The notes under the pieces: model-generated | What the model was told of the DNA's origin: nothing | What the model saw: only the letters and a program-made list of their open reading frames with translations | Database searches by the model: none | Shown here: positions 4,133-12,089 of the stretch, in pieces | Layout: each line of letters opens with the position of its first letter | How positions within the stretch are numbered: the first letter of the stretch is position 1 | From: Armatimonadota bacterium | Lineage (GTDB): Bacteria > Armatimonadota > Armatimonadia > Armatimonadales > Armatimonadaceae | Assembly (NCBI GenBank): GCA_043754515.1 | Contig: JAYUUO010000074.1 | Coordinates: forward strand, 1 to 15,620 | Length of the DNA: 15,620 nt | Direction: 5' to 3' | Translations under genes and position numbers: made by a program

Positions 4133-5350
4133 CTACCCGCGATCCCCCAGCCCGCGCATCGTGAACACGCCCGCGTAGTGGCGGCGGATCGGGGCGATAT
4201 TTGCCATCGCCCAGACCAGAGCGCGGTACGGATGCCAGGGCGGGCACGGGCGTCCCAGCACCGTGTTCCGTTCCGCGCGGGCGAGCGCGGTCTTCGCGGG
4301 GCGCATCCGGGCGTTCTCGTACTGATAGGGCCAGATCGTGTGGCGTATGGCCTCCCGTGTTGGCTCGCTGACTTCCGTTTCTTTCGACTTTGATCCTCCG
4401 GCTAACAGGCGCGGCAGAACGGACGCGAGTTCGCCCGCGTCCAGGAAGCCGAGGTTCATTCCCTGCCCTCCTATCGGCGAGACTATGTGCGCGGCGTCCC
4501 CGGCGAGGAATAACCGCCCCTTGTAGAACGTGGACGCGAGCCAGTACTCGATCCCGAATGGCGACATCCAGACGCACGTCTCGACCGGGATCATAAATCC
4601 GGTACGGGCGTAAACCAGGGCAGCGAGGTCGCGGGCGTCGCTCGTTTCCGTTCGCTCCGGCAGACGTGCCACCCAGCGCCGCAACCCACCGGGGAGCGGG
4701 AACGATTCCACGATCCCGCCTCGGGTCACGAACAGCGCGGCGTCGGTGCCAAAAGGAGTGTCATCCGCGAAATCACCCATAAGGTAGCAGTCGGGGTACG
4801 TGCCGCCGACGAACGGGATGCCCGCCGACCGGCGCGACGCGCTGTTCTTGCCGTCGCACGCGACCACGTACCGCGCCGTGACAGAGCGCGTGCCGTGATC
4901 CGTCTCTACAGTCAGGGTCGCGTGGGTTTGGCCGTATTCCGAGCCGGTCGCGGTCGCGCCGCGCACCAGGGCAGCGGGGGCGAGTTCGCACAGCCGCCGC
5001 TCCAGCACCGCCTCGGTCACGGTCTGCGGCACGGACAAGACGAAGGGGAATATGGGGTCTACCACGCCGAGCGGGAGCCGCCCGGCTAGTTTCCTGTCCA
5101 GATACACCCGCCCGCCGGGGATACATACCCCGCGCCCGGTCAGTTCGCCCGCGACGCCCGCCGCTTCCAGCACGTGGAGCGCGGGCGGATGGATGCCGAT
5201 CGCGCGGGAGTGAACCGCGGGGGAGACCCGCCGCTCCAGCACCACGCAGTCCACGCCGCATAGCGTCAGGAGGCAGGCTAGTGTTAGCCCCACGGGTCCC
5301 CCGCCCACGATCACGACGTCGGCCTCGCGCGGCGGGTTTACAACTTCCAA
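4133..5350 (-). CDS. FAD-dependent monooxygenase/hydroxylase (FAD_binding_3, UbiH/PheA-like)
   Basis: VVIVGGGPVGL Rossmann motif, VVACDG..S..R, FLAGDAAHIVSPIGGQGMNLGFLDA. Confidence 0.92.
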   Translation of the reverse strand: MEVVNPPREADVVIVGGGPVGLTLACLLTLCGVDCVVLERRVSPAVHSRAIGIHPPALHVLEAAGVAGELTGRGVCIPGGRVYLDRKLAGRLPLGVVDPIFPFVLSVPQTVTEAVLERRLCELAPAALVRGATATGSEYGQTHATLTVETDHGTRSVTARYVVACDGKNSASRRSAGIPFVGGTYPDCYLMGDFADDTPFGTDAALFVTRGGIVESFPLPGGLRRWVARLPERTETSDARDLAALVYARTGFMIPVETCVWMSPFGIEYWLASTFYKGRLFLAGDAAHIVSPIGGQGMNLGFLDAGELASVLPRLLAGGSKSKETEVSEPTREAIRHTIWPYQYENARMRPAKTALARAERNTVLGRPCPPWHPYRALVWAMANIAPIRRHYAGVFTMRGLGDRG

Positions 5351-5357
5351 AGAGAAC

Positions 5358-6047
5358 TCACGTTTCCCATATCAGTTGCAGGCGGAACGGGAAGGTGACG
5401 CGGACGTGCCACCCCCGCGGTGCAAGCCGCGCCAGTTCTCCCGGCGTGAAGGCGCGGCGGATCGAGATTAACCCGTCCGGCAAAATGAGCGAGTCGCGGA
5501 ACCAGCCGCCGATCAGCGGGAAACCGGCGTAGGCGAGCGGGTGCCGGTGAATATCGGCGTGCAACACGAGTCGGGACGCGAGTTCGCCGGACGTCTCGCA
5601 GAGAGTGACGACTTCGGCATCGCTCAGATGGTGCAGGAGATGGTTCGAGATCACGATGTCGAACCGCTCCCCGGCATCCGCGAGTTGCCGAGCGGGCGCA
5701 CACGCGAAGCGCACGTTCGGCGGTTGCGGCAGACTCCGCGCATAGGCAATGGCGCGATCGTCCGTATCGGCCCCGACGAAGCAGGACGTCAGGCCGTCGC
5801 GCCGCGCATAGCCCGCAAGCCGCCGCAACACGTCCCCGCCCCCGCAACCGATGTCCAGTAGTGACGCGCCGGGACCCGCCGCGCGTAGTACCGGGCGCAG
5901 ATACCGCGTGTACAGCCCGCGCCAGCCGCTCACGAGATGGTTCACGCGGTCGAAGTCGCGGTACGTGTTGCATAGCACGGACGCGTCGCACAAGGAGTCG
6001 TCCATGATCTCCGCGCTGTCTGTCGCCCGCGTTTTTAGCACCGTCAT
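5358..6047 (-). CDS. Class I SAM-dependent methyltransferase (229 aa)
   Basis: Start re-called at ATG 6047 (MTVLKTRATDSAEIMDD), 8 nt after the PKS stop; the longer track ORF overlaps the PKS. Motifs LLDIGCGGGD, FDIVISNHLLHHL, DGLISIRRAFT. Confidence 0.88.
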   Translation of the reverse strand: MTVLKTRATDSAEIMDDSLCDASVLCNTYRDFDRVNHLVSGWRGLYTRYLRPVLRAAGPGASLLDIGCGGGDVLRRLAGYARRDGLTSCFVGADTDDRAIAYARSLPQPPNVRFACAPARQLADAGERFDIVISNHLLHHLSDAEVVTLCETSGELASRLVLHADIHRHPLAYAGFPLIGGWFRDSLILPDGLISIRRAFTPGELARLAPRGWHVRVTFPFRLQLIWET

Positions 6048-6055
6048 TCGCGCGG

Positions 6056-7168
6056 CTATGCCTTCCGCATCACGGCGGTCTCCACGGTCAGGCCGGGGCC
6101 GAACGCCATCGCGACGACCGGATCGCCCGCCCCCGTCAGCGTCCCGGCGCGGAGCATTTCCGCTAGCACGAATAGAATAGTCGCCGAACTCATGTTGCCG
6201 TAATCCCGTAGCACGCGCCGGGAGGCGGTGAGTGACGTTTCGCATAGGTCGAGCGCGGACCGCACCTTGTCCAGGATCGCCCGCCCGCCGGGGTGTACCG
6301 CCCAGTGTGCCACGTCCTGGGCGCGTAAGCCGGAACCCCCGAGCGTCGGCACCAGCGCGTCCCCGATGTTCGCCCGCAGGATCTCCGGGACGTACGACGA
6401 CAGGCGCATGGCGAACCCATTGTCGCCAATCGTCCACGCCATGTCCGACTCGCCGGTCGGGGTCAGTGTCGTATCGAACCGCTCCAGGATCAGGGCGGGT
6501 TTACCGCCGCTTGGCTCACGCGCCGATACCACCGCCGCCGCCGCGCCGTCCGCGAACACCGAGCCGCCCAATATCGCGTCCGTGTCGCCGTCGAAGCGCA
6601 GGTGGAGCGAGCAAAGTTCGAGGCAGACGACGAGTACCACGGCGCGGGGGTCATTCTCGCAGATGGTCTTTGCTAGCCGTAGTGCCGGGAACGCCGCGTA
6701 GCATCCCATAAACCCCAGGTGAAAGCGCGGCACGCTCGGCGGCAGGTTCAGCGTGCGCACCAGATGGTAGTCCAGCCCCGGCTGAAAGAAGCCGGTGCAG
6801 GACGCGGTGATGACGTGCGTCACGTCGGGCGCGTCGAAGCCATCCGCGTTTTCGAAGGCGCGGCACGCGACCTCGGCACCCAGGCGGCGCGCCTCGGTAG
6901 TGTAGAGCGCGTTCCGCTCGCCTGTAGTGGGGTTGCGCAACGTGTCGGTCGCTCCGTCATAGAAGATGCCGCCCGCCGCGCCGGGCAGGAAGTCGGGAAC
7001 CGCGCTATGCCGCGTTTCTATGCCCGACTGGCTGTACAGGTAGGAGCGTACCCGCTCCTGTTTGCGGTCTCCGCCCGCCGAGAACCGCTTCATGGCTTCG
7101 GCGATGAAGGGTTGCGGGTAGGCGGTAGGCGGAACGGCGGTCTCGATGTGATGAAGGTAGACGGGCAT
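6056..7168 (-). CDS. Type III polyketide synthase (chalcone/stilbene synthase family)
   Basis: Catalytic triad in context: MGCYAA (Cys), VHPGG (His), YGNMSS (Asn); also SCTG, ELCSLH, FADGAAA, AFGPGLTVE. Confidence 0.95.
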   Translation of the reverse strand: MPVYLHHIETAVPPTAYPQPFIAEAMKRFSAGGDRKQERVRSYLYSQSGIETRHSAVPDFLPGAAGGIFYDGATDTLRNPTTGERNALYTTEARRLGAEVACRAFENADGFDAPDVTHVITASCTGFFQPGLDYHLVRTLNLPPSVPRFHLGFMGCYAAFPALRLAKTICENDPRAVVLVVCLELCSLHLRFDGDTDAILGGSVFADGAAAAVVSAREPSGGKPALILERFDTTLTPTGESDMAWTIGDNGFAMRLSSYVPEILRANIGDALVPTLGGSGLRAQDVAHWAVHPGGRAILDKVRSALDLCETSLTASRRVLRDYGNMSSATILFVLAEMLRAGTLTGAGDPVVAMAFGPGLTVETAVMRKA

Positions 7169-7253
7169 AAAAGGCGCGTGGTGCCGTTCCTTTCGACCGC
7201 ACCCGCGTCCCGTGTATATACCCGATCATGGCTCGGTTTGGAACATGGGTCGG

Positions 7254-8801
7254 TTAGCCCAAAGTGCGCACGCCCATAACCGGTAAACCGTTGGGAGCCG
7301 CGCCCGCGCCGTTCCCGTTCCCGCTCGCCATGATCGCCGAGACGGACTTCACCATCTCCTCAATGTCGGCGTACTTCTCGTCGGAGTCGTCGTAGAGCCA
7401 TTCGTTCAGCGCGTCCACGTCCACGTCGCCCCGGTCACGCTCCCAGAGTTTGCGAGCGATGCCGCGCTCGCACTTGGCGATCAGTTCGTCGGCGTTGTGG
7501 ATGTCGGCTTGAAGCGACGTGCGCCGATCCCAGAGTTGCTTGCCCTCGTCGCCGTCCGAGCGGTCGAAGAAGAAGCACCACGTATAGAACAGATGGTACA
7601 CCGTGCTGTTGATGCTCTCCCACGGCACGGACGGGCGGTTCTCCTCGAACCAGAGGTGTAGTCGGTCTTTGGCTTCCTTGAGCGAGATGTCATTACTCGC
7701 AGGGTCGGCGAATAGATCGTACATCACGCGGATGATCTGGTGCCGTTCCGCCGACGGCACATAGCGGAAGTTGTTATCGCGGAGCCAGAGCCGGAGCCGC
7801 TCGCCGGAAGTCATCTGGCTCGGCGTCGCGGTCGTGTACACCTGCGTCGAGGCGTACGGCGCGTAGGGCTGCGGGGATGATGACGGGGCGAACGGTTGCG
7901 TCTGCTGGGCCGGGGTGGGCGCGGACGCCGGGGTTGACGCGAACAGCGGCGGGCGCGTCGGCATCGGCCCGGCGTTGCCGTCGGGGCGTTGTTGCGCGTG
8001 CGCCGCACCGTTCCCATTCGATTGTCCCTGGCCCGGCGGTGTCGTGTTCGCCTCCATGCCACCTTCGAGTCGGCCCTTGGGTGCCACCGTCACGTCCCCG
8101 ATGGCGGGCTTATGCAGATCAATCAGGTCGCCGTGCGAGCGTAGGAACTCCAGGAACGACGTGTGCCCTGAGCGGGTTTCGTCGAACATCGGGTCAATCT
8201 TGCGCATCGTGGTCTTGAGCGCGGAGCCGGGCACGGGGCGGTTGCCGAGTGCGGCAAGCCCTTTAGCGAGCAGGGCGACCGGGTCCATCGGTGTCACCGG
8301 GATCGAGCGTTCGGGCAGGACCTCGCTGTTCGCGCCGTGCAGATCGTCGTAGTAGCAGAAGCGGTCGCAGGCTTTGGCGAGGTAGGTCGAGGTGTTGGAG
8401 CGCACGCCGACCCCGACCACATACCGCCCGGTCTCGCGCAGTTTCAGTACCAGTGGGGTGAAGTCCGAGTCGCCGGAAACCAGCGCGACGTGCGTGATGT
8501 CGGACTGGCGGAGCGCGACGTCCATCACGTCAATCGCGATCTTGATGTCGGCCCCATTCTTGCCTTTGTAAGTCAGGGAGAAAGTCTGAATCGGGTCGCA
8601 AGCGTTGTCGAGTAAGTCGGAGCGGTAGTCCTTAAAGACGCCCCAGTCTGCATACGCCCGCTTCAAAACGATTCGCCCCTCGGTGACTTTGCCGATCTCC
8701 TCGAAGATGCGCCGTAGCTCCACCCGCTCATTCACAAAGTAGTCGTCAACCGCCCGCTTAATGTTTTCGAAATCAACGAATACCGCCACTCTATTTTCCA
8801 T
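7254..8801 (-). CDS. NYN (LabA/DUF88, PIN-like) domain protein with OST-HTH/LOTUS-like domain and extra C-terminal domain
   Basis: VFVDFENI, KNGADIKIAID, LVSGDSDFTPL, LAKACDRF..YDDL; then LKTTMRKIDPMFDETRSGHTSFLEFL (LOTUS-like); Pro/Gln/Thr linker; globular C-terminus. Confidence 0.88.
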   Translation of the reverse strand: MENRVAVFVDFENIKRAVDDYFVNERVELRRIFEEIGKVTEGRIVLKRAYADWGVFKDYRSDLLDNACDPIQTFSLTYKGKNGADIKIAIDVMDVALRQSDITHVALVSGDSDFTPLVLKLRETGRYVVGVGVRSNTSTYLAKACDRFCYYDDLHGANSEVLPERSIPVTPMDPVALLAKGLAALGNRPVPGSALKTTMRKIDPMFDETRSGHTSFLEFLRSHGDLIDLHKPAIGDVTVAPKGRLEGGMEANTTPPGQGQSNGNGAAHAQQRPDGNAGPMPTRPPLFASTPASAPTPAQQTQPFAPSSSPQPYAPYASTQVYTTATPSQMTSGERLRLWLRDNNFRYVPSAERHQIIRVMYDLFADPASNDISLKEAKDRLHLWFEENRPSVPWESINSTVYHLFYTWCFFFDRSDGDEGKQLWDRRTSLQADIHNADELIAKCERGIARKLWERDRGDVDVDALNEWLYDDSDEKYADIEEMVKSVSAIMASGNGNGAGAAPNGLPVMGVRTLG

Positions 8802-10631: not shown

Positions 10632-10709
10632 GCCATCACCGACACTTCGATCTCGGCGATATTGAGCCACGAGCCGTGCTCCGGCGTATAGTGGAACTCG
10701 AATCGGTTC

Positions 10710-10736
10710 AGTCGAAAACCGCCGCCGTTTGTCGGG
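10710..10736 (-). repeat. Imperfect palindromic insert B (27 nt, in frame)
   Basis: Minus strand CCCGACAAACGGCGGCGGTTTTCGACT; removal restores EACRLMNRFEFHYTP. Confidence 0.7.
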
Positions 10737-10801: not shown

Positions 10802-10827
10802 AATTTTTTCGCCGCGAAAAGAATCGC
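10802..10827 (-). repeat. Palindromic insert C (26 nt)
   Basis: Minus strand GCGATTCTTTTCGC G GCGAAAAAATT; removal restores VLDNMNTH. Confidence 0.85.
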
Positions 10828-10869
10828 ATTGTCCAGCACGATCACGATCTTGTCCGCGTCGGGACATTC

Positions 10870-10892
10870 AGGCGAAACGCAGTTCCGCCGCA
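10870..10892 (-). repeat. Palindromic insert D (23 nt)
   Basis: Minus strand TGC GGCGGAAC TGC GTTTCGCC T; removal restores RVSNEECPDADKI. Confidence 0.8.
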
Positions 10893-11008: not shown

Positions 11009-11037
11009 CAGAGAAATCGCCGGGGCGATTTTCCCGA
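11009..11037 (+). repeat. Palindromic insert E (29 nt; 30-mer family, loop 1 nt shorter)
   Basis: CAGAGAAATCGCC GG GGCGATTTTCCCGA; removal restores DYEYVREGAANLF. Confidence 0.9.
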
Positions 11038-11198
11038 CCTCGCGCACGTACTCGTAATCCTCGCGCTTAGCTTGACCCGCCCCGGCGGGTAACCACTCCC
11101 GCGACGCGCTGCGCAGTTCCTTCTTGCCTTCATCCACGCAGACCGCCGGCCGCTTCGCGTCGTATGGCAGTTCGTACACACCCAGGACGTCCTCCATC

Positions 11199-11228
11199 CA
11201 GAGAAATCGCCACAGGCGATTTTCTTGC
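11199..11228 (+). repeat. Palindromic insert F (30 nt, in frame)
   Basis: CAGAGAAATCGCC ACA GGCGATTTTCTTGC; removal restores YVA(K/R)MEDVL. Confidence 0.9.
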
Positions 11229-11276
11229 TTGGCGACATACTGCGGCGAGGCGGTTCCGATGCAGAACCTCTCTACC

Positions 11277-11306
11277 CAGAGGAATCGCCGGGGGCGATTC
11301 TCTCGA
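11277..11306 (+). repeat. Palindromic insert G (30 nt, in frame)
   Basis: CAGAGGAATCGCC GGG GGCGATTCTCTCGA; removal restores IKPW(K/R)VERFCI. Confidence 0.9.
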
Positions 11307-11324: not shown

Positions 11325-11332
11325 TTTTTTTT
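11325..11332 (-). promoter_or_regulatory. Slippery A8 site, probable programmed -1 frameshift joining IS630 orfA and orfB
   Basis: CTA AAA AAA ACG; a -1 shift gives LKKNAIKPW, the usual junction in this IS630 group. Confidence 0.8.
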
Positions 11333-12089
11333 AGCCGGGCGCAGACCGCCGAGTCGCTGATACTGTCCACCAGTTTGAGCTCCACTAATTTGTCGGCGAG
11401 GAGTTGCATCGTCCAGCTCGCCCGGCCTACGGGAGGCGTAGAGCAGGCAAGGAGAGTCAGCTGGGCTTCGACCGCCCCCGTGATCTTCGGTGTTTTCCCC
11501 GGTCGTGGTTTCTCAGACAAAGCCGACTCGATCCTCACTTGAACAAAAGCGCGACAGATGCGGCTGATCGTCGGACGCGAAACCAGAAGCGATTGTGCGA
11601 TTTGTTCTTGTGTCTCAGGTTTGTCTTGACTCTTATCGGCTAAGAGTAGGATGCGGGCGCGATTCGGGACGCGGGCAGAGGCATTGCCTTTGCGCATGAA
11701 ATCGAGCAGGTAGTGACGGGCTTCCGGTGATAAAGTGACGGCAAGATATTGGCTCATGCATTCATTCTCGAATTGATAAGCATATTACTGGATGCTTCAC
11801 TTAGCCTTTCAGTTCATAGCCTTCGGATTGCTTAACAAGGCGGTAATCCGGATAAGCATTGCGGGCAGGCGCATCAAAATTAATATTCGCTTTATTCAAA
11901 CGAGCTCCAAACCAGTTTTGGAAATGGAATTCTTTGTGAATACCACTCGCCGATGATAGTGTCGCGGTGAATGACGAGGACTGCGTCCGCCCCGGTGTCG
12001 CGGCAAAGCCGCTCGTAGTCGCGGACCGCTTTCCTGTTTATCCCGGCCATTTCGGGAGAGGTTGCCACTGTAGCGGGGTTCGCTACCTT

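Follow-up and report, generated by a model that had tools for sequence, protein, structure and literature searches.

Insertion sequences of the IS200/IS605 type insert cleanly beside a short, specific 5' target and rely on hairpin recognition with strand asymmetry; they carry two different subterminal hairpins, extend over hundreds of bases and use fixed tetra- or pentanucleotides as targets. The palindromic elements of Rickettsia (RPEs) measure about 100-150 bp and reside in housekeeping genes. Moreover, the SDRs of Nostoc and other cyanobacteria, which Elhai et al. are said to have described in 2008, are reportedly 21-27 nt long, mobile, in some cases hairpin-forming and nested in repeats, with a mover that is not known. 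In PMC3733652, REPs are noted to occur inside genes and small palindromes and to be marked by a GTAG or CGTC tetranucleotide at one end, and RPEs are presented as in-frame palindromic repeats in ORFs that are probably still functional.

Here we describe R1, a 30-nt element with three copies (E, F and G) in the window, i.e. the whole stretch of 15,620 nt analysed, from an Armatimonadota bacterium. Our preferred reading, to which we assign a probability of roughly 0.6, is that these are copies of a lineage-specific, non-autonomous mobile hairpin of the REP kind; its movement, we infer, probably takes place as single-stranded DNA and depends on an HUH/Y1 enzyme provided in trans. Where small palindromic repeats are usually seen as extragenic, R1 would then be a parasite or silencer of other mobile elements, and it is found seamlessly inserted in coding DNA, both of prophage genes and of no fewer than eight transposase families.

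R1 resembles the IS200/IS605 elements in its insertion without duplication, its hairpin and its strand asymmetry, but it is a single 30-nt hairpin, and the 5' motif beside which it lands is looser than their targets, with alternate positions conserved. With the RPEs it shares the palindromic repeat lying in-frame in ORFs, whereas it is 30 nt long and found mainly in genes of mobile elements; it is far smaller than both RPEs and MITEs, and comes without duplication. The Nostoc SDRs are likewise very small, in some cases hairpin-forming, and nested, but differ in phylum and sequence, and we know of neither a bias to transposase genes nor a 30-nt frame-keeping unit among them. With REPs and REPINs as described in PMC3733652 and PMC3116915, R1 agrees as a 20-40-nt imperfect palindrome that is dispersed, lineage-specific, strand-asymmetric and present inside genes and palindromes. 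R1, with a moderate copy number of about 55, works like a REP but lacks three of the defining REP features tested: instead of a GTAG or CGTC tag, its consensus ends read CAGAG... and ...CTTG(A); REPs are predominantly extragenic, whereas most R1 copies are intragenic, with a concentration in genes of transposases and prophages; and no RAYT gene is flanked by its repeats. The literature surveyed covers intragenic REPs, RPEs, MITEs and bypass elements; no account of tiny hairpins concentrated in transposase genes was found in it, and the supplements of PMC3733652, on REP-bearing ORFs, may contain transposase cases. R1 bears on two open questions, namely what moves REP-like hairpins without a RAYT partner, and whether insertion sequences are themselves held in check by even smaller elements. 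It represents a testable system: the element is defined, its target motif is described, Y1 enzymes are available as candidates, and filled as well as empty sites occur naturally. Genome annotation is affected too, since inserts of this kind break up genes, those of transposases among them, into pseudo-fragments or introduce spurious loops into the predicted peptides.

The features of the window on which the analysis rests are the following.

11009..11037, plus strand: R1 copy E, a 28-nt core (11009-11036) with the 2-nt loop GG, plus a 3' A; 39.3 bits
11199..11228, plus strand: R1 copy F, a 29-nt core (11199-11227) with the loop ACA, plus one base; 44.1 bits
11277..11306, plus strand: R1 copy G, a 29-nt core (11277-11305) with the loop GGG, plus a 3' A; 40.1 bits
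10428..11757, minus strand: IS630-family transposase gene with HTH_32 and DDE_3 domains, single-copy in the genome
10612..10634, minus strand: 23-nt insertion of family F3 (CAG-T-CAAAAGC-S-GCTTTTG-A-CG), a strong hairpin (z -3.9)
10708..10734, plus strand: 27-nt insertion, a weak or degenerate palindrome from CAGTCGAAAAC, folding not better than shuffles
10803..10828, no strand assigned: 26-nt insertion with the small palindrome TTTTCGC-C-GCGAAAA, weak or degenerate
10867..10889, plus strand: 23-nt insertion, hairpin CAGGCGAAAC-GCA-GTTCCGCC, F2/F4-like, a weak or degenerate palindrome
11325..11332, minus strand: A8 run (T8 on the plus strand) at the overlap of two reading frames; the intact homologue also changes frame there

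A sequence-only reading of this DNA had called three hairpin copies in the same orientation, with a varying loop and a kept stem, and both their positions and the plus strand are borne out. The core palindrome AATCGCC-N1-6-GGCGATT occurs three times in the window against an expectation of 0.01, and 0 of 200 shuffles reach three; E, F and G follow one another at spacings of 190 and 78 nt. The compensatory pair claimed in the same reading is also seen, with GAATCGCC/GGCGATTC in G versus AAATCGCC/GGCGATTT in E and F, that is, G-C in the former and A-T in the latter. Folded as DNA, F and G (z -5.4 and -3.2) are each better than all of 200 shuffles, whereas E, with its 2-nt loop, stands out less (z -1.55; equalled by 11 of 200 shuffles).

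The family extends well beyond the window. In the fragmented genome searched here (G000; 5.13 Mb, 313 contigs, 92.7% complete), a 16-17-nt palindrome is found at 13 places, 12 of which have a longer consensus in common. Similarity alone, with two changes allowed per arm, recovers 41 copies, and a covariance model built from an alignment of 51 copies gives at least 54 matches at E<1e-3 (150 of 4718 candidates scored), so copies exist outside this IS. They are present in unrelated genes on about 40 contigs, and homologues of the window gene lack the elements at the sites of E, F and G, congruent with the independent insertions proposed earlier. Core length is 29 nt in 36 of the 51 aligned copies, 28 nt in 12 and longer in three. 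As parsed from E, F and G against empty sites, the unit is a 29-nt imperfect hairpin, CAGAGAAA-YCGCC-N3-GGCGR-TTTTCTTG, plus one 3' base, usually A, giving 30 nt in total. Of the 13 pairs in its stem, two are G-T and one is an A-C mismatch as read on the CAGAG strand. There is hardly any variation in the outer arms CAGAGAAA and TTTTCTTG, and the G-T pairs and the mismatch are kept on one strand only; written as G-U, each of the two pairs is retained in 44 of 49 distinct copies. The forward (CAGAG) strand scores 40-50 bits and the reverse about 20 bits, and thus R1 is oriented. The suggestion of a family with conserved structure likewise holds: 8 of the 13 pairs vary on both sides, a covariation that 0 of 500 shuffles match and that lies above every slid register, the counts representing fewer events than cells because several copies are paralogous, and the paired percentage being inflated because part of the seed was chosen by rule (4 of 5 inner pairs). 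One stem pair is U-A in 28 copies, C-G in 19 and G-C in one. Inverted R1 pairs 117-296 nt apart occur on contigs C143, C147, C157 and C233; there is no conserved doublet, and most copies are single. The flanks of R1 do not pair with each other, so the stem is not extended. A search of the elements against Rfam returned no family match, and a weak match to CRISPR-DR23 at 11411-11446 is below the cut-off and outside the elements. A CRISPR repeat was considered and rejected, as the spacings of 190 and 78 nt are irregular and the genome's own arrays have unrelated repeats.

R1 inserts cleanly, directly 3' of a loose C-N-R-N-T target and in either orientation relative to the host gene, and it also inserts into the loops of other hairpins. 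Aligned with three hairpin-free homologues from two other genomes, the window gene displays gaps of exactly 30 (G), 30 (F) and 29 nt (E), in agreement with the claim of frame-keeping 30-nt copies next to a shorter, frameshifting E. On the transposase (minus) strand F keeps the frame and adds the peptide QENRLWRFLW, G keeps it as well, with NRENRPRRFLW, and E shifts it. A diverged fourth homologue, in the sister genome G002, has an R1-family copy at the same site as G. Paralogues within the genome itself provide two further 30-nt filled/empty cases and one 26-nt variant. The cleanest pair is an IS3-type gene, of which two contigs here carry the filled form and G002 has two empty ones at 86% identity, and where exactly 30 nt are inserted with at most one base of ambiguity at the junction. 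At every filled/empty site compared, neither a target duplication, the absence of which had been noted from the window alone, nor a loss of target bases was found.

The target motif was derived from 40 copies, after eight paralogous duplicates and one member of a tandem pair had been dropped. Position -5 is C in 32 of the 40; C at -5 together with R at -3 precedes 29 of 40, against a genome frequency of 0.157, and the full C-N-R-N-T precedes 15 of 40, against 0.031. In three empty sites the C and the R are already present, and hence these bases belong to the target. Both are also present at five of seven distinct loci from another genome and metagenome contigs, as read by eye. The motif is loose: 11 of the 40 copies are without the C(-5)/R(-3) combination, among them copy E and the IS3-type pair, both of which lack the C. 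As to the base at -1, it is C in all three window copies (11008, 11198 and 11276), while T is the commonest overall (21 of 41 copies). A T at this position would give an in-frame TGA on the transposase strand, and a C there gives TGG.

All three window copies are antisense to the IS630-family transposase gene, and the four additional insertions in it (23, 27, 26 and 23 nt) are missing from all three homologues. The sequence-only reading had reported neither these four nor the sister hairpin families, the 5' target motif and the bias to mobile genes. The seven short insertions are the only lesions of the gene, without any other indel relative to the intact homologue and without a stop. Once the seven stretches are removed, frame 0 stays open as far as codon 152, and frame 2 from codon 82 right through to the end, as in the intact homologue. 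Analogously, in an IstB gene on another contig, three R1 insertions (37, 29 and 32 nt) account for all frame changes, and the Walker motifs are intact. That hairpins form the sole, and multiple, lesions in two genes suggests either that insertion is locally very frequent or that the hairpins are often excised seamlessly, so that selection continues to act on the genes.

It had further been supposed that in-frame copies could be tolerated inside proteins, and R1 is indeed located in-frame within open ORFs of a GH25 lysozyme, two DNA methylases, an IS3 integrase core and ISL3 and IS256 transposases, and, elsewhere, of an ISAZ013-type transposase in another genome and of DDE_Tnp_4-type transposases. 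Since 30 is a multiple of three and four of the six R1 frames are without a stop, many copies are read through as a 10-residue loop; the 28-nt R1 variants and the sister families (23-27 nt) break the frame. No orthologues of the GH25 gene were found in the sister genomes. A GH2 gene of 1741 aa (C306:8860-9120; L079:5380-5640) is variable in that G000 and G002 carry an insert, some 110-130 nt long, which G001 and G003 lack; the G000 version of the insert includes a weak R1-like hairpin, the membership of which is uncertain, and the G002 insert has another sequence. The A8 run at 11325..11332 is presumably a programmed frameshift site, judging from IS630 elements in general. Copy G is about 19 nt downstream of it on the transposase strand, and R1 is located 5 nt downstream of an IS3-type A-run at two other places (G000 C153:2784-2814 and C310:1107-1137; L109 and L116). 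An R1 hairpin near an A-run might affect programmed frameshifting.

The placement of R1 is biased towards mobile DNA. Contexts were assessed for 56 copies (54 model matches and two regex copies) from ORFs of at least 90-100 aa overlapping or near them, and 40 random genome positions, drawn with a fixed seed, received the same treatment. Within or at most 150 nt from a transposase-domain ORF are 18 of the 56 copies as compared to 1 of the 40 random positions (Fisher p 2e-4), the test overstating the difference as the 18 represent 11 loci and the events are not independent. With the clustering allowed for, 11 of about 40 loci is still far above 1 of 40. The families concerned are IS630 DDE_3, IS21 IstB, IS3 rve, IS256, ISL3, DDE_Tnp_4/1 and DDE_5. 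Twelve more copies are in two prophage-like regions or in the GH25 lysozyme gene, or adjoin a serine recombinase, so that any mobile-element context applies to 30 of 56 copies versus 4 of 40 random positions (Fisher p 9e-6). The control hits comprise one transposase, itself the R1-bearing IS3, and three phage, integrase or recombinase genes. Up to seven more transposase cases are indicated by paralogy, a weak IS1 match or an IS3-type alignment, with weaker support; the remainder lie either in ORFs with no family assigned or amid ordinary genes. In another genome and metagenomes, a transposase ORF covers or adjoins R1 at seven of eight loci. Low G+C was rejected as the cause, the flanks of R1 (59.9%) being only 2.5 points lower than random windows (62.4%), too small a shift. 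Tolerance in dispensable mobile DNA probably explains part of the bias and not all of it; alone, it does not obviously account for transposase genes being struck far more often than intergenic DNA.

Several sister hairpin families accompany R1, some of which also begin with CAG and end with GA. F3 (CAG-N-CAAAAGC-S-GCTTTTG-N-CGA) has eight exact copies in the genome; elsewhere it was not found in the sister genomes, and two distant genomes of the order have a single copy apiece. F2 is CAGGCAAAAC-NN-GTTTTGCCGA, and one F2-like 24-nt insert is readable in an otherwise poor alignment at C157. At five places R1 arms surround 80-149 nt of other hairpin families, and twice the same cargo is found between them in opposite orientation: C143:5213-5296 and C143:12633-12716 contain the same two inner hairpins, as if the inner segment had been inverted or the composite copied both ways. 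The composites are consistent with hairpins having inserted repeatedly into the loops of others. A 484-aa ORF of the phage-type DUF5131 family (C138:18046-19497) is open across a nested composite of R1, F3 and F2, and its DUF5131 match spans 374 residues for a 243-position profile.

Three rival explanations deserve consideration. The strong placement bias could reflect directed colonisation or silencing, where a host- or element-encoded process places hairpins in transposase and prophage genes, for instance while the mobile DNA is extrachromosomal, being cut or poorly translated, and where the hairpins are the main, perhaps reversible, inactivating lesions of the IS. The excess at transposase ORFs and in mobile contexts over random positions, the spread over at least eight unrelated IS families, the agreement of the loci from the other genome and the metagenomes, the several insertions per gene, with hairpins as sole lesions of the IS630 (seven) and IstB (three) genes, and a flank composition that offers no explanation all point this way. 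On the other hand, no candidate machinery was found, some copies are intergenic or in non-mobile contexts, and survivorship in dispensable DNA biases in the same direction; the search for other lesions covers two genes, and the control 40 positions. A dedicated mechanism, perhaps a reversible one, that directs the seamless insertion of 23-30-nt hairpins to genes of transposases and prophages appears unlikely to us. Were it true, it would possibly be coupled to single-stranded or extrachromosomal states of IS and phages, and the hairpins would be the dominant off-switch of such genes in the lineage.

The anatomy of R1 and of its composites also invites a reading as a minimal MITE or a DDE footprint, with the 13-nt arms as terminal inverted repeats and R1 as the smallest derivative or an excision remnant; the arms are indeed inverted repeats with a fixed outer sequence and a variable centre, and the five composites hold other DNA between them. 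We find this distinctly improbable, given the absence of target duplication, and a cargo made up of hairpin families that also occur alone, which nesting explains better. Neither was any arm pair 0.2-5 kb apart enclosing a gene found in this fragmented, 92.7% complete assembly. Two double-stranded transposon ends cannot, as a general matter, be synapsed across a 3-nt spacer. Lastly, the elements could act at the RNA level, as terminators, stabilisers, frameshift stimulators or segments that are removed or bypassed, with host genes that stay functional. The G-U pairs kept on one strand, the copies shortly past the IS3 A-runs and the A8 run, and the two interrupted genes without other lesions would suit such a role. 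It is nonetheless highly doubtful, as R1 occurs in both orientations in host genes (about 13 antisense and 9 sense among 22 copies in genes with an assigned frame), Rfam returns no family, and expression-neutral hairpins would be expected in housekeeping genes too, where they are not common. Intrinsic terminators were rejected specifically, with E alone flagged in the scan against 1.6 expected in shuffles, and with copies located inside genes in both orientations. So was translational bypassing: reading by eye revealed no matching take-off and landing codons beside the frame-breaking inserts of the IS630 and IstB genes.

Returning to the mobile single-stranded hairpin as the preferred reading, R1 would leave and join as single-stranded DNA in a peel-and-paste manner; an HUH/Y1 enzyme provided in trans would recognise the hairpin, cut at its foot and join the element next to a short target. 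The enzyme class is suggested by the combination of hairpin recognition, strand asymmetry, a short 5' target and insertion without duplication, four features which to our knowledge only HUH/Y1 chemistry combines, as in IS200/IS605 and TnpA-REP. Y1_Tnp is matched four times in the genome, in one case by an intact ORF of 161 aa that bears HUH and Y-x3-Q, and there are five TnpB-like matches. The intact gene (G000 C71:14139-14621; L093:1414-1899) directly follows trpB, with one truncated R1 1.1 kb downstream at the contig end and none upstream; beyond this single copy, no R1 was found around the Y1_Tnp loci L092, L093 and L095, nor at the orthologous loci in G001 and G002. A RAYT link was rejected, as no R1 flanks the Y1 genes in REPtron style at the loci inspected, including the orthologues in the two sister genomes. 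Of the 32 family genomes, 22 have an orthologue of the intact gene, at 40-67% identity; these represent 11 of the 12 genera, among them genera without R1. The gene is conserved and single-copy across the family, and it has the look of a domesticated gene, not of an IS component. A search for Y2, silent in every control genome as well and hence uninformative, gave no match in the genome.

The distribution of R1 is narrow. Among the 71 genomes of the order, the covariance model finds 51, 9, 1 and 1 matches in four genomes of the same genus and none in the 67 others. The exact R1 pattern, searched in a public set with one genome per species, gives two loci, both in one MAG labelled Armatimonadota; it is found on six metagenome contigs and yields no match in viral contigs. 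Contigs from four other metagenome runs have the filled alleles at E, F and G and at three other inserts, and none joins across an element, although contigs cannot show absence; with no empty allele among them, mobility at present is putative.

Other repeats are also present in the same genome. A further hairpin family, CCCCTCTCCCT-TCGG-AGGGAGAGGGG, occupies 22 places, and a CAAAAC-NN-GTTTTG repeat with at least 16 nt of conserved flank on each side is found at about 35 (e.g. C26:16073, C33:23342 and C264:9117), often where contigs end; it probably represents the terminus of an IS or MITE present in many copies. An array of 20 type I-E CRISPR repeats (C143:134-1323) and a cas operon (cas2, cas1, cas3, cse1, cse2, cas7, cas5, cas6e; C138:221-9704) are each located at a contig start and are each followed by hairpin-rich, prophage-like DNA, and a 71-repeat array of another type is present on C61. 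In the window itself, a type III polyketide synthase, a methyltransferase and an FAD monooxygenase are encoded together on the minus strand at 4133-8801, adjoined by a 515-aa NYN-domain protein.
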